From a virus, in UHGV virus genome UHGV-0176277: a stretch of 11,027 bases of DNA. One strand, given 5' to 3'. The stretch's first letter is position 1; each line of letters begins with the position of its first letter. Positions 777 through 9,458 of the stretch are shown here, one piece after another. The notes below the pieces were generated by a model that saw only the letters and a list, made by a program, of their open reading frames with translations, was not told where the DNA came from and ran no database searches. A program made the position numbers and the translations under genes.

Positions 777-2213
777 TCAGAATCCTCCTTTCTTCTTGGA
801 CTGCGGTTCCTCGCGTTCACGTCGGCGCATTTCAGCAGACTGTTGGTCTGTGTCATAAATAGCGCCATTTGCCTGAATGCAATACACCGTACCGGTATTG
901 CCATGACGATTGAGACGAAGGATTAGTTCGGTTTCACCAGGTGGAACACTGTCACCAAAAGCGCCTTCACGATGGATCCCAACCCAATAATCGCAATCCT
1001 GTTCAATCTGCCCTGTATCTCGTGAGTCACTTGGTAATGGGCGTTTATTGGTTCGGCTTTCCAGTGCGCGGTTAAGCTGCGTCAGAAGCACAACAACGCA
1101 ATCAAGCTCTTTGGCAAGGTTCTTCAGTCCTTTGGTGATCATGCCGTAAGCAAGGTCGTTGCGATCGGCCTTCTCAGCGGTCATTAGTGTCAGGTAATCG
1201 ACCAGAATCATGCCAACACATCCTTTTTCTCGCTTGATTCGACGGCTTTCGCTGACGATTTGAGCCAGAGATAATCCCGGCGTGTCGTCGATGTAAAGCA
1301 GGTCGATTTCACTCAAGCGATTGGCTGTTTCGATCGCCCTGTTGAAGTCACCATCGTAATCACCCTGATAGCCGTCATCAGCGTCATTTGTCGCCGGAAG
1401 GTAAAAAATATTCGGGTTAACACCAGACTTCTGCCCTACCAGTTTTTCCAGTATCTGGTCACCTGGCATTTCAAGGCTGAACATAAGAGCGGGCTTTTTC
1501 TCATGCACTGCGCAGTTGATTGCCATCTGGCTGTATAGCGTCGTTTTCCCCATCTTAGGGCGAGCACCAATGACAAACAGAGAGCCTTTCACCAGACCTT
1601 TCGGTGACAGCATCCTGTCCAGCGATGGGATCCCTGTGCTCATTCCTCGTTGTTCGCCTGATGGGTCAAATCGCTTCTCAAGGTCGCTAACCCAGTCTTC
1701 CATGACCTCGCCAAATGAGCGAAGGCCGCGACGCGATCCGGTTTTTGCATGGTCTGTCAGTTGCGTGAAAATCGCCTGAATAGCTTCGTACTTCTGCGTT
1801 GCAGTCATTCCGTTGCGGGAATAGAGCAATTCCGTCGCTTCAGTCATGCGGTTGATGGCGTAGCGTTCCATTGCGGTTTCGCGAACCTGCATTGCATAGG
1901 CAACGATGTTTGCGGCGCTCGGCGTGTTCTTTGCGATCTCAGAGATATAAGCAAAACCGCCAACAGACGCCGTTAACGATTTACGCTCCAGTTCATCGAA
2001 AAGCGTCAGGCCATCTACTGGCTTTTGCTCCCGGTGCATTCTGGTTATTTCTTCGAAAAGGATTTTGTGTGGTCGGCTGTAAAATGAATCAGGCTTCAGC
2101 ATCGCCAGAACTTTCTGGACGCGCTCACTGCTGTCATCATCCAGAAGCAATCCACCAATCACCGCCTGCTCTGCCTCGATGCTATGTGGCGGCGCATAAA
2201 AATTATCGGTCAT
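777..2213 (-). CDS. Replicative DNA helicase, DnaB family (phage P22 gp12-like)
   Basis: N-terminus MTDNFYAPPHSIEAEQAVIGGLLLD matches the DnaB N-terminal signature; Walker A GARPKMGKTT; start ATG at 2213 with GAGGGTGA SD, overlapping the upstream O-like gene end (2203). The track's longer ORF (to 2267) has no support for the extra 18 codons. Confidence 0.9.
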   Translation of the reverse strand: MTDNFYAPPHSIEAEQAVIGGLLLDDDSSERVQKVLAMLKPDSFYSRPHKILFEEITRMHREQKPVDGLTLFDELERKSLTASVGGFAYISEIAKNTPSAANIVAYAMQVRETAMERYAINRMTEATELLYSRNGMTATQKYEAIQAIFTQLTDHAKTGSRRGLRSFGEVMEDWVSDLEKRFDPSGEQRGMSTGIPSLDRMLSPKGLVKGSLFVIGARPKMGKTTLYSQMAINCAVHEKKPALMFSLEMPGDQILEKLVGQKSGVNPNIFYLPATNDADDGYQGDYDGDFNRAIETANRLSEIDLLYIDDTPGLSLAQIVSESRRIKREKGCVGMILVDYLTLMTAEKADRNDLAYGMITKGLKNLAKELDCVVVLLTQLNRALESRTNKRPLPSDSRDTGQIEQDCDYWVGIHREGAFGDSVPPGETELILRLNRHGNTGTVYCIQANGAIYDTDQQSAEMRRREREEPQSKKKGGF

Positions 2214-3093
2214 CGTGTTCACCCTCACGAACTTTAAGGTAGGTATTGTCGTTAAGCAGGAAATCAAATCCCTTTTTGTGCCAGACGGTTCCGCGTTGAT
2301 GGTTTGGGCGTTCTTCGAACATCCATCGGCAATTTTCGCCTACGTAGCTCAAATAATTTCTCCAGTCCTGCATCGTGAAACCATGCCCGTCAAGCTGGCG
2401 GGTTATCACTCCGGCTTTGCGCCAGAACGTTCGGATCTGGTTTTTACGCTTGTCATTCAGTGCGCGGATTCTTGGCGCTTCAGGAAGGATTTCGTGGTAA
2501 GCATCGACAACATCCTGACAGCTAACGGAAGGTTTTTTCTTGTCAGACTTTTTGTCTGCTGTGGCACTCTCTAATACGTCAGTATTAGAGATATTATTTA
2601 TATTATTGTTTATGGACAACCGTTGGACAACCGTTGGACAATCTCCGCTGAGAGCCGCGCCATCACTGGTGTTTGCGTTGGACAACCGTTGGACAACCGT
2701 TGGACAATTTTTTGCCTGAAAATCGTCATATTTAACGATTGTAAACAGGCTAAATTTCTTCCCCATCGAGCAAATATTAAGCATCCCTTTCGACTCAAAA
2801 GTCCGTAATAAGCTCCGAACTTTGTTGTCGGGGATGAATGTTTCTCTGACCAGCGACGGGCGTCCAGTTATCATCTGACCGCGATCAACAGTTATCGGAC
2901 CGATATCCGTATTGACGACAGTAGATTCGTGATTAGCCTTGAGGATTAAGTGAAGCCAAAGATGTACTGCCTGAGAGTCCTTATAGAGCCTGCTGTCCAT
3001 AAACTGGCGGTGTATAGAGACATACCCCATACTGGATGCCTCCTGATGTTGTACAGGGTTATGCCTGTAATCAGCTAACTTAACGACGCCCAT
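2203..3093 (-). CDS. Replication initiation protein (lambda O / P22 gp18 functional analogue) with the origin embedded in its coding sequence
   Basis: Lies between cII and the helicase; coding region contains phased direct repeats that translate as repeated CPTVVQRLS; ATG at 3093 has AGGAG 6 nt upstream; an alternative start at 3030 (MGYVSIH...) has AGGAGG 8 nt upstream, so the true N-terminus is uncertain. Confidence 0.7.
   Translation of the reverse strand: MGVVKLADYRHNPVQHQEASSMGYVSIHRQFMDSRLYKDSQAVHLWLHLILKANHESTVVNTDIGPITVDRGQMITGRPSLVRETFIPDNKVRSLLRTFESKGMLNICSMGKKFSLFTIVKYDDFQAKNCPTVVQRLSNANTSDGAALSGDCPTVVQRLSINNNINNISNTDVLESATADKKSDKKKPSVSCQDVVDAYHEILPEAPRIRALNDKRKNQIRTFWRKAGVITRQLDGHGFTMQDWRNYLSYVGENCRWMFEERPNHQRGTVWHKKGFDFLLNDNTYLKVREGEHDDR
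2614..2707. repeat. Origin iterons: six copies of an 11-bp direct repeat (GGACAACCGTT) in two triplets, flanked by an AT-rich tract
   Basis: GGACAA begins at 2614, 2625, 2636 and at 2680, 2691, 2702; all six are in 11-bp register with a 44-bp GC-rich spacer; AT-rich 2582-2612 (tattagagatattatttatattattgtttat) lies on the downstream side of the O-like reading frame, as in ori-lambda. Confidence 0.75.
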
Positions 3094-3251
3094 GCTTCAC
3101 TCCTGCTTTGGCTAGTCTGTAAACACCAACAAGGCGCTCTGCGAACGCCCTGTTATTTGCTGCGGCTACCACTAATCCCTCAGGTGAATCAGGGTGTCGA
3201 ATCTCTTCTTTTTCCTGGTATTTCTTACGACGTTTTGTCATAATTACTCCT

Positions 3252-3328
3252 GTGGATTGATCCAGTAATGACCTCAGAATTCCATCTGGATTTGTTCAGA
3301 ACGCTCGGTTGCCTCCGGGCGTTTTTTA
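3252..3328 (+). ncRNA. oop: oop-like antisense RNA overlapping the 3-prime end of cII
   Basis: Sequence tgattgatccagtaatgacctcagaattccatctggatttgttcagaacgctcggttgcctccgggcgtttttt closely matches lambda oop RNA as I recall it; ends in a GC hairpin plus T6; CATAAT -10 at 3239-3244; convergent with cII (stop at 3274). Confidence 0.7.
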
Positions 3329-3567
3329 TTGGTGAGAATCGAAGCAACTTGTCGTGCCAATCGAGCCATATCGTCGTCGACGACGCCCCATTCAAGAACA
3401 GCAAGCAGCATTGAGAACTTTGGAATCCAATCCCTCTTCCACCTGCTGATCTGCGACTTATCAACTCCCACAGCTTCCGCTGTCTTCTCAGTTCCAAGCA
3501 TTGCGATTTTGTTAAGCAACGCACTCTCGATTCGTAGAGCCTCGTTGCGTTTGTTTGCACGAACCAT
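3274..3567 (-). CDS. cII: Transcriptional activator CII (97 aa)
   Basis: Translation from the internal ATG at 3567 (MVRANKRNEALRIESALLNKIAMLGTEKTAEAVGVDKSQISRWKRDWIPKFSMLLAVLEWGVVDDDMARLARQVA...ERSEQIQMEF) is essentially lambda CII; SD and leader TAAGGAAATACTTACATATG match lambda. The track's 126-aa ORF is an upstream in-frame extension. Confidence 0.95.
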   Translation of the reverse strand: MVRANKRNEALRIESALLNKIAMLGTEKTAEAVGVDKSQISRWKRDWIPKFSMLLAVLEWGVVDDDMARLARQVASILTNKKRPEATERSEQIQMEF

Positions 3568-3584
3568 ATGTAAGTATTTCCTTA
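3545..3584 (+). promoter_or_regulatory. PRE-like CII-dependent promoter (direction of cI, antisense to cro)
   Basis: TTGC-N6-TTGC CII-binding repeat at 3545-3558 (TTGCGTTTGTTTGC) straddling the cII start, with a weak -10 (AAGTAT) about 3572-3577, as in lambda PRE. Confidence 0.6.
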
Positions 3585-3587
3585 ACA

Positions 3588-3618
3588 AATAAGAAGTTAT
3601 GCGCATCAACTTATGCGC
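3588..3618 (-). terminator. tR1-like terminator hairpin between nutR and cII
   Basis: On the minus strand GCGCAT-AAGTTG-ATGCGC (perfect 6-bp stem) followed by AUAACUUCUUAUUUGUU; lambda tR1 is at the same position and is largely Rho-dependent. Confidence 0.45.
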
Positions 3619-3626
3619 GTTGTATT

Positions 3627-3669
3627 CCCGCATTTCGGCGGGAATGAGGACCATGACTGTTAAAGAGCG
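3627..3669 (-). promoter_or_regulatory. nutR (boxA + boxB) N-utilisation site
   Basis: Minus-strand boxA CGCTCTTTAACA (plus 3658-3669) begins 7 nt after the cro stop; boxB hairpin CCCGC-CGAAAT-GCGGG (plus 3627-3642); the same boxA core and boxB recur at nutL (5299-5338). Confidence 0.75.
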
Positions 3670-3976: not shown

Positions 3977-4693
3977 ATGGAAAATAAAAAATCACTGACG
4001 ACAGAACAGCTCGAAGACGCTAAGCGGCTTAAGGCTTTGTATGAGTCAAAAAAGAAAGAATTGGGAATAACCCAATACTCAATCGCTGATGAACTGGGTA
4101 TCACCCAAGGAGCGGTAGGGCATTATCTTAATGGCAGAAACGCGCTAAACGTTGAGGTTGCATCTGGTTTTGCACGGCTGTTGCAAGTCTCAATTGCTGA
4201 TTTTAGCCAGTCAATTGCTGCCAAGGTTGCAGAACAGGCAGAAAGCCTTAAGAGCGATGCCAACGTAAGGTATGCAGGGGAATACAGAGCAGGAAAGAGG
4301 TATCCGGTGTTAAGCAGTATCCAGGCTGGCTCGTGGTGTGAAGCATGCGAACCATACACCATTAAAGACATAGATGTTTGGCTTGAGTCTGACGCGCATA
4401 TTCAAGGTAATGCGTTCTGGCTTAAAGTGGAAGGTGATTCAATGACGGCACCGGTTGGGTTAAGCATTCCAGAGGGGACATTCGTTCTTTTCGATACCGG
4501 AAGGGAGGCGATCAACGGCAGCTTGGTCATAGCAAAACTTTCTGACTCTAACGAAGCAACATTCAAGAAGCTGATAATCGACGGCGGAAATAAATACCTC
4601 AAGGGACTTAATCCTGCATGGCCTCTCGTGCCAATCAATGGAAACTGCAAGATTATAGGCGTTGCAATTGAGACAAAACTAAGGCTGGTTTGA
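3977..4693 (+). CDS. cI: CI repressor (HTH N-terminal domain plus S24/LexA-type autocleaving C-terminal domain)
   Basis: N-terminus ...LTTEQLEDAKRLKALYESKKKELGITQYSIADELGITQGAVGHYLNGRNALN parallels lambda CI; Ala-Gly cleavage site in SIQAGSW; catalytic Ser in EGDSMTAP and Lys in TFKKLI. Confidence 0.95.
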   Translation: MENKKSLTTEQLEDAKRLKALYESKKKELGITQYSIADELGITQGAVGHYLNGRNALNVEVASGFARLLQVSIADFSQSIAAKVAEQAESLKSDANVRYAGEYRAGKRYPVLSSIQAGSWCEACEPYTIKDIDVWLESDAHIQGNAFWLKVEGDSMTAPVGLSIPEGTFVLFDTGREAINGSLVIAKLSDSNEATFKKLIIDGGNKYLKGLNPAWPLVPINGNCKIIGVAIETKLRLV

Positions 4694-8367: not shown

Positions 8368-8847
8368 ATGAAAATCTGCTCAAGATGCCATCAACAGAAG
8401 GAAGAAAGGGACTTTCAAATCAGAAGAGCATCCAGAGATGGATTAACTGCCGCTTGCCGTGCTTGCCTGGCTGAATACGACAAAGAACGCGCTGGATTGC
8501 CACATCGAGTATCAGCAAGGAGAGAATATCAATCATCGGAACGCGGCAGAGAACGGTGTAACGCAGCCAAAAAGCGGTTCATTCAGAGCAACCCATGGAA
8601 AAGAAAAGCCCACATCATTGTGGGTAATTTTTTGCGCGACGGTAAGCTAATCCGACCACCACAATGTGAGTGCTGCGGATCAGAATGTAAACCACAGGCG
8701 CACCACTGCGACTACAGTAAACCAACCGATGTGATGTGGCTCTGCAAGTCATGTCATGTCGAGTGGCACAAACATAACAAACCTATCTACCCAGATGAGG
8801 AACCAGTAACTCTCCCCTTCCCTCGTCACGCTATTCACGCAATTTAA
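8368..8847 (+). CDS. Cysteine-rich zinc-binding protein with an HNH-like motif (putative HNH nuclease or zinc-ribbon protein)
   Basis: N-terminal CSRCH...CRAC pair; C-terminal CECCGSEC...AHHCDY...WLCKSCHVEWHKH resembles the CxxC...HH...CxxCH arrangement of HNH nucleases but lacks a clear Asn; AGGAG SD 6 nt upstream. Confidence 0.5.
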   Translation: MKICSRCHQQKEERDFQIRRASRDGLTAACRACLAEYDKERAGLPHRVSARREYQSSERGRERCNAAKKRFIQSNPWKRKAHIIVGNFLRDGKLIRPPQCECCGSECKPQAHHCDYSKPTDVMWLCKSCHVEWHKHNKPIYPDEEPVTLPFPRHAIHAI

Positions 8848-9157: not shown

Positions 9158-9167
9158 GGAATTAACA

Positions 9168-9458
9168 ATGAAAACAATGAAGCTAAACATCGACCTCGGA
9201 AAATACGTTATTACCGTAACCAAACACGATCTGATTCTTAGCGAAAGAGGAATTATCAAAGAAGGCGAGAATGCAGGGAAAGAAACACTAAGCCGTATCG
9301 GTTATTACAGCAAGTTTGAGCATCTGGTTAAAGAGTTATGCAACCGTGAAATTCTGTTATCTCAGGCGCGGACGCTACAGGATATTCAGCAGCATATCGA
9401 AGCTTTAGGTATGTCACTTAGCATGGCTATTGACCAGTTCGTGGAGAGTAAATCATGA
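9168..9458 (+). CDS. Hypothetical protein (96 aa)
   Basis: ATG at 9168 with GAGGAA SD; the track's 147-aa ORF from 9015 overlaps the previous gene in another frame, so the internal start is preferred. Confidence 0.55.

Follow-up and report, generated by a model that had tools for sequence, protein, structure and literature searches.

Within the predicted replication initiator gene of the virus genome UHGV-0176277 lie six short direct repeats, and the question is whether they form the origin of replication of the phage or owe their presence to some other property of the gene. The analysis covered a stretch of 11,027 nucleotides, referred to here as the window. The element is, with a probability that we place at about four in five, a putative theta-replication origin of a lambdoid phage of the Sf6/HK633/phage L type, situated in the linker-coding part of the gene for its own initiator. 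This reading is supported by the earlier annotation of related phages, by selection at the DNA level, by a scaffold shared among homologues, by the tracking of the repeats with the N-terminal domain of the initiator, by the homology of the protein to G38P of SPP1, by an order of elements like that of lambda, and by the adjoining helicase gene.

The early-right region of a lambdoid phage occupies the minus strand of the window. It comprises cII (3274-3654), a 53-codon open reading frame (3080-3241), the initiator gene (2203-3093; an open reading frame of 296 codons whose translation is O-like and resembles phage L gp18) and a gene for a DnaB-like replicative helicase (777-2213; Pfam DnaB and DnaB_C, E = 1e-59), the start of which, at 2213, is the same as that of Sf6 gene 44. 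The 53-codon frame overlaps the start of the initiator gene by 14 nt (3080-3093), and the helicase start overlaps its 3' end by 11 nt (2203-2213); these overlaps at both ends suggest translational coupling along the operon. A strong terminator-like hairpin followed by a T run is located on the plus strand at 3298-3325, within the 3' end of cII and antisense to it. The terminator of the lambda oop antisense RNA sits at the equivalent position. The initiator gene shows 99% nucleotide identity to Sf6 gene 43, and is 98-99% identical to its counterparts in Huey, HK633, HK106, mEp234, mEpX2, IME10, HK75 and Sf6; its product shares 77% of its amino acids with L gp18.

Over its full length the initiator belongs to phrog_345, "replication initiation O-like" (E = 1e-84). 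Pfam and NCBIfam yielded no usable family, the sole match being a sub-threshold one to DUF7376, and no relative was found among solved structures searched by sequence. An AlphaFold model, built with a 40-sequence alignment, is confident for an N-domain (residues 27-129) and for a C-domain (residues 189-296), and of low confidence for the segment between them (residues 130-188, pLDDT <50); the C-domain is presumed to be the partner of the phage DnaB-like helicase. Judging from the model, the middle segment is probably a disordered linker; it is encoded by the DNA of the repeats, of an AT-rich tract (INNNINNI) and of a palindrome (SNTDVLE). The N-terminal winged-helix domain (pLDDT 73-90; coding part 2707-3015, minus strand), presumed to bind the repeats, has a coding part that ends in a conserved KYDDFQ motif (2716-2733). 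Its Foldseek matches in the PDB are weak (best E = 0.015, none at or below 0.001), and all of them are winged-helix DNA-binding domains. The domain is homologous to G38P of SPP1 (hhalign 97.8%, E = 9e-13, residues 20-130 against 2-115), a relation that tblastn also supports (E = 1e-5). Between the initiator and lambda O, no similarity was detectable (BLASTP E = 4.7; hhalign probability 0.1%; no Pfam replication-protein-O domain).

The repeats are arranged in two minus-strand blocks of three 11-bp units each. An exact 30-nt block, TGGACAACCGTTGGACAACCGTTGGACAAT, is present at 2613-2642, nearest the AT-rich tract (plus-strand cores at 2613, 2624 and 2635), and again at 2679-2708, nearest the N-domain (cores at 2679, 2690 and 2701). 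The two are offset by 66 bp (6 x 11), which bears out the three empty register positions described in the sequence-only reading of this DNA. All six copies of the 7-nt core TGGACAA that the 11-kb window contains lie in these blocks, in strict 11-bp register; of 200 shuffles, one reached six matches anywhere. That reading had also described both triplets as copies of one 11-mer. The full sequence GGACAACCGTT is indeed exact at four positions (2614, 2625, 2680 and 2691), but the third unit of each triplet (2636 and 2702) is truncated, with GGACAA alone retained; set against the register CGTTGGACAAY, it agrees at 10 of 11 positions. Read on the sense strand, the block at 2679-2708 is TTGTCCAACGG TTGTCCAACGG TTGTCCA. 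The repeats begin about 25 nt past the end of the N-domain coding sequence and encode initiator residues 129-160, between the coding parts of the N- and C-domains. Their minus-strand translation, NCPTVVQRLS...DCPTVVQRLS, contains the repeated linker peptide that had been pointed out, its two copies lying 22 residues apart and both within the segment of pLDDT <50. The spacer (2643-2678, minus strand; 33 nt between blocks by unit definition) is GC-rich (64%, against 47% for the whole window) and the flanks are AT-rich (5% GC at 2592-2612 and 29% at 2709-2760), again in agreement with the earlier description.

Several other signals were sought in the same DNA. A second copy of the repeats, analogous to oriR of SPP1, was not found in the 11-kb window, where only a two-mismatch match at 4476 appeared, at chance level; the DnaA box consensus TTWTNCACA likewise had no match in the window. 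We considered lambda-like dyad iterons, built on the 9-bp junction palindrome CAACnGTTG, and rejected them because that palindrome is not conserved in L, HK022, ENT47670 or the Klebsiella class. In a simple promoter scan the repeat units score as -35-like (9/12; 2613-2642 and 2679-2708 on the plus strand, 2630-2602 on the minus strand), probably a side effect of the likeness of TTGGACA to TTGACA. Tandem Repeats Finder reports two 9-bp tandem repeats of about two copies each at 8826-8844 and 9164-9181, unrelated to the origin.

The placement of all six units on one helical face, as had been proposed, is exact only if the helix has 11.0 bp per turn. With 10.5 bp per turn the units drift by 17 degrees each, by 34 degrees across a block and by 103 degrees between blocks. 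The value that brings all units into phase is equivalent, by simple arithmetic, to about 4.5% underwinding. Two homologues with a 12-bp period (L103 and L104, described below) argue against a strict phasing rule.

Next to the block at 2613-2642 lies the AT-rich tract (2592-2612, minus strand; 5% GC), A-rich on the sense strand and presumed to be the DNA-unwinding element. It is adjoined in turn by a perfect 10-bp inverted repeat around a 4-nt centre (2568-2577/2582-2591, assigned to neither strand; TCTCTAATAC GTCA GTATTAGAGA), which was absent from the sequence-only reading. Folded as DNA, the palindrome (2568-2591) gives -7.5 kcal/mol (z = -5.8). Homologues of the initiator number about 1,600. 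Those used here were drawn from annotated phages and 29 bacterial genomes, and 33 were compared, at 34-95% amino-acid identity; they span many genera of the Enterobacterales and include Escherichia, Citrobacter, Enterobacter, Raoultella, Yersinia, Xenorhabdus, Morganella, Erwinia and Pantoea, among others. All 33 possess an AT-rich tract (12-24 nt, mostly 21-24 nt; 5-23% GC), and all 33 have at the equivalent place a palindrome with a perfect 9-10-bp stem and a 4-nt loop. Covariation was counted over 21 distinct homologous sequences: 97.6% of the cells pair, as compared with 29-63% in shuffled and slid controls, and double changes occur at all 10 pairs (60 cells altogether). Neither a G-T pair nor a mismatch appears in the 189 cells that make up the nine inner pairs. 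The amino acids vary where the symmetry stays, for example from SNTDVLE to SSTDVEE; it is the symmetry of the palindrome that is conserved, and not its sequence. Strict Watson-Crick symmetry without wobble fits duplex DNA better than an RNA hairpin.

The element in the window is a rediscovery. The Sf6 record AF547987 marks a putative rep_origin in gene 43 at 28385-28480, which corresponds to window 2613-2708; the element is the same there, with 99% nucleotide identity and no material difference. Equivalent putative origins are marked in the records of HK620 (gene O) and phage L (gene 18), and these annotations uphold the proposal that the origin lies inside the initiator gene. For phage L, six imprecise 11-bp repeats have been described as the likely origin (PMC8022706, 2020). 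The public annotations are all "putative", and a literature search on the Sf6/HK620/L-type family found no binding, unwinding or origin-mapping experiment. Only the family-wide regularities described below might be new; we found no published family-wide description of them.

With the conserved KYD(D/E)(F/Y)Q motif as the zero point from which fixed distances are counted, the scaffold follows a common plan in 31 of the 33 homologues: three 11-nt units, a 33-nt spacer, three further 11-nt units (the last truncated), AT-rich DNA and the palindrome, with 66 nt from block to block. In nearly all homologues the initiator gene matches itself most strongly at period 11, and the same two-block layout was checked in L, HK022, ENT47670 and a Klebsiella phage. 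The two exceptions, from Silvania hatchlandensis (L103) and a Leclercia MAG (L104), have a 12-nt period (TTACCA... three times, twice over) and blocks 68 nt apart, located approximately 50-150 nt past the KYDE motif, and they keep the same AT-rich tract and palindrome. Enterobacterial-type initiator genes also appear in three assemblies assigned to unrelated phyla (51-86% identity over the best matching segment), namely CACSKA010000001.1, "Chryseobacterium sp. 18061" (L087), Catenulispora (L112) and Xanthomonas pisi (L114); the latter two are tiny contigs, and all three may represent contamination or mislabelling.

On this common scaffold the repeat unit itself falls, on the sense strand, into at least seven classes, with CC(A/G) at one shared position in every class: TTGTCCAACGG in the window, Sf6 and L; ATTACCAGCAG in HK022 and HK620; GTGCCAACAG in Klebsiella, Raoultella and Yersinia; AATCCAAAGG in homologues L092 and L093; TGTCCAGCC in L094; TGTCCGG in L105; and TTCCCAGAAG in L113. 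Phage L, at 77% amino-acid identity, thus has the repeat class of the window (TGTCCAACGGA), whereas HK620 and HK022 share the scaffold but differ in the repeat (CTGGTAAT...) and have a diverged N-domain. The number of 66-bp (22-residue) modules, each made up of repeats plus spacer, is one, two or three among natural variants. Initiator lengths of 274, 296 and 318 residues occur in E. coli and Shigella, and of 277 and 299 residues in Salmonella; in each series the step from one length to the next is exactly one 22-residue module (length variants: P0001-P0022, 318 aa; P0032-P0042, 274 aa; P0096, P0098, P0103 and P0110, 277 aa; also L084). The 274-residue variants keep only the block nearest the AT-rich tract, equivalent to window 2613-2642. 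The single-block form was not found in the isolated-phage collection, in which the best-matching phages all have two blocks; the single-block example examined belongs to a Shigella flexneri prophage disrupted by IS1/IS4 (L119, 6385-6415).

The class of the repeats follows one half of the protein. Across 29 sequences, the similarity of the repeats is correlated with the identity of the N-domains (r = 0.77, Mantel p = 2e-4) and hardly with that of the C-domains (r = 0.21); in partial correlations the N-domain retains 0.76 given the C-domain, and the C-domain falls to 0.00. The identities of the two domains are themselves nearly uncorrelated (r = 0.27). Individual pairs illustrate the pattern: HK022 has a C-domain 100% identical to that of the window, an N-domain 49% identical and different repeats, and homologue L089 has a C-domain 44% identical, an N-domain 88% identical and identical repeats. 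These comparisons indicate that the repeat class tracks the N-terminal winged-helix domain and not the C-domain, with the qualification that the correlation is confounded by physical linkage, to which it owes a part because the repeats directly follow the N-domain coding sequence. A recognition code relating helix residues to repeat bases gave suggestive patterns (for example RVQYLL with CCAG) but was rejected, L094 being inconsistent with it and phylogeny being a confounding factor.

In layout, the candidate origin resembles that of lambda. Both lie in the middle of the initiator gene, both initiators have two domains with specificity in the N-terminal half, and in both the order is repeats, AT-rich tract and inverted repeat, the last being of 12 bp with a 4-nt centre in lambda (L115; AT-rich tract 520-560, inverted repeat 563-590). 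The description of the locus as ori-lambda-like but with short direct repeats therefore holds. Lambda has four iterons of 18-20 bp at a spacing of 20-24 bp, each of them internally dyad-symmetric and a binding site for O dimers, whereas the window has six direct 11-bp units without a conserved dyad; and the helicase partner in the window is a phage DnaB-type helicase, in contrast to the P-type loader for host DnaB in lambda. Since no relation of the initiator to lambda O could be detected, the lambda mechanism serves only as an analogy.

The closer relative of the initiator is found in SPP1. There, G38P binds direct repeats beside an AT-rich unwinding element inside gene 38, at oriL, and replication in vitro has been obtained from a 356-bp fragment of oriL (PMC5737612, PMC6316719). 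As in the window, oriL is located in the gene of its own initiator, directly after the N-domain coding sequence, and by our own reading of its sequence it consists of short direct repeats with a period of approximately 10-12 nt followed by an A-rich AT tract. It differs in its repeat sequence, in the absence of a two-block arrangement and in the Gram-positive host, and an inverted repeat sought in gene 38 was not found. SPP1 also encodes the helicase loader G39P (gene 39) between the initiator and helicase genes; the window has no room for such a gene, because the helicase start at 2213 overlaps the initiator stop at 2203-2205. A second G38P-binding region of SPP1, oriR, has been proposed to stall forks. 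The candidate origin is like ori-lambda in layout, and its initiator belongs with G38P. In iteron plasmids such as pPS10, F and R6K, winged-helix initiator domains bind direct repeats beside an AT-rich unwinding element, but plasmid iterons are typically 17-22 bp long and lie outside the rep gene. The Foldseek matches of the N-domain to plasmid initiators (4pql, 4pt7; E of about 0.06-0.08) are below significance, and no sequence homology was found between the initiator of the window and the Rep proteins of iteron plasmids.

Could the repeats simply be a by-product of a duplicated linker peptide, with no function as DNA? CPTVVQRLS is duplicated in a low-confidence, probably disordered segment, and the number of 22-residue modules is variable, as is often the case in linker repeats. 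The 11-nt period, however, places the units of a block in three frames, which give no peptide repeat within the block, so that selection on the peptide cannot yield the period. Mean pairwise identity at third codon positions, calculated within two repeat classes, is 0.85-0.98 in the repeat blocks (0.87-0.98 in the block at 2679-2708) and 0.83-0.85 in the AT-rich tract, as against 0.43-0.45 in the flanking N-domain coding sequence. The spacer is intermediate (0.56-0.60); its sequence is poorly conserved, with a pairwise identity of 0.60, but its length is fixed, although it encodes a linker in which in-frame indels would in principle be tolerated without harm. The comparison points to selection on the DNA of the repeats and the AT-rich tract, and we regard the peptide explanation as extremely improbable. 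The AT-rich tract and palindrome might instead serve chiefly as a recombination joint, at which the N-domain with its repeats is swapped against the C-domain with its helicase. In favour of this, the O genes of HK022, HK620, VT2-Sakai and other Stx phages match the window at about 97% of nucleotides only over 2203-2613, their homology going no further than 2613, precisely at the border of the repeats, and the two domains vary almost independently of each other, as noted above. From these alignments, position 2613 looks like a recurrent mosaic joint between a specificity half and a helicase-partner half. A joint would nevertheless leave the repeats, their period and the symmetry-only conservation of the palindrome unexplained, and is more readily seen as a consequence of the origin layout than as its purpose; as the main function it is very unlikely.

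Two further explanations accept a role for the nucleic acid but not that of an origin. The repeats could be initiator sites used mainly for control, in autoregulation, titration or a transcription block, with the true origin elsewhere. Intragenic binding could keep the initiator and helicase genes from being transcribed or translated, the fork-stalling role proposed for oriR offers a precedent, and the -35-like scores of the units are compatible with such a role. On the other hand, the repeats are always joined to the AT-rich tract and palindrome, in the order of the proven lambda origin and with the pairing of repeats and AT tract seen in oriL, and the window holds no second copy of them. Origin and control functions are not mutually exclusive in any case, and a mainly regulatory role seems unlikely. 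The palindrome at 2568-2591, for its part, could be an RNA element, for instance an intrinsic terminator for antisense (plus-strand) transcription that uses the T-rich tract: the simple scan calls it terminator-like on the plus strand, if weakly, and the phage L record has predicted terminators at the equivalent place. Yet just three pairs of the stem are G-C and the T run is not continuous, G-U pairs, which RNA helices usually tolerate, are missing from all 189 inner-pair cells, the lambda origin has the same element, and an Rfam search of the window matched no family. We consider the RNA interpretation improbable.

If the element is an origin, as we favour, initiation might proceed as follows. 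Each of the six 11-bp direct repeats would be bound by one N-terminal winged-helix domain, and an ordered nucleoprotein array would form over the two three-unit blocks, 66 bp from centre to centre. On negatively supercoiled DNA this array would destabilise the adjacent 21-bp AT-rich tract, and the flanking palindrome might then be free to form hairpins or a cruciform, or might mark the limits of the bubble in another way. The C-domain of the initiator would recruit the phage DnaB-type helicase encoded immediately downstream. A bolder and more tentative proposal, possible but in our estimation more likely wrong than right, is that the family comprises seven or more initiator/origin pairs, orthogonal to one another, on a single unchanging scaffold, in which the palindrome is essential and the 11-bp spacing couples assembly of the array to melting of the AT-rich tract. 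In that case the palindrome might extrude as hairpins that position or load the phage helicase, and the bound domains would come into phase only if the DNA were underwound to about 11 bp per turn.

Lamassu-type defence is reported to target phage origins and palindromes. The widespread family to which the element belongs takes in Sf6, HK620, HK022, phage L, VT2-Sakai and other Shiga-toxin phages, in all of which the origins are putative. For these phages the comparison predicts which residues and bases would set specificity, and that block spacing and palindrome symmetry would be important; it further predicts the natural occurrence of origins with one to three 66-bp modules. Orthogonal initiator/origin pairs, if they prove to be such, would be useful as replicon parts.
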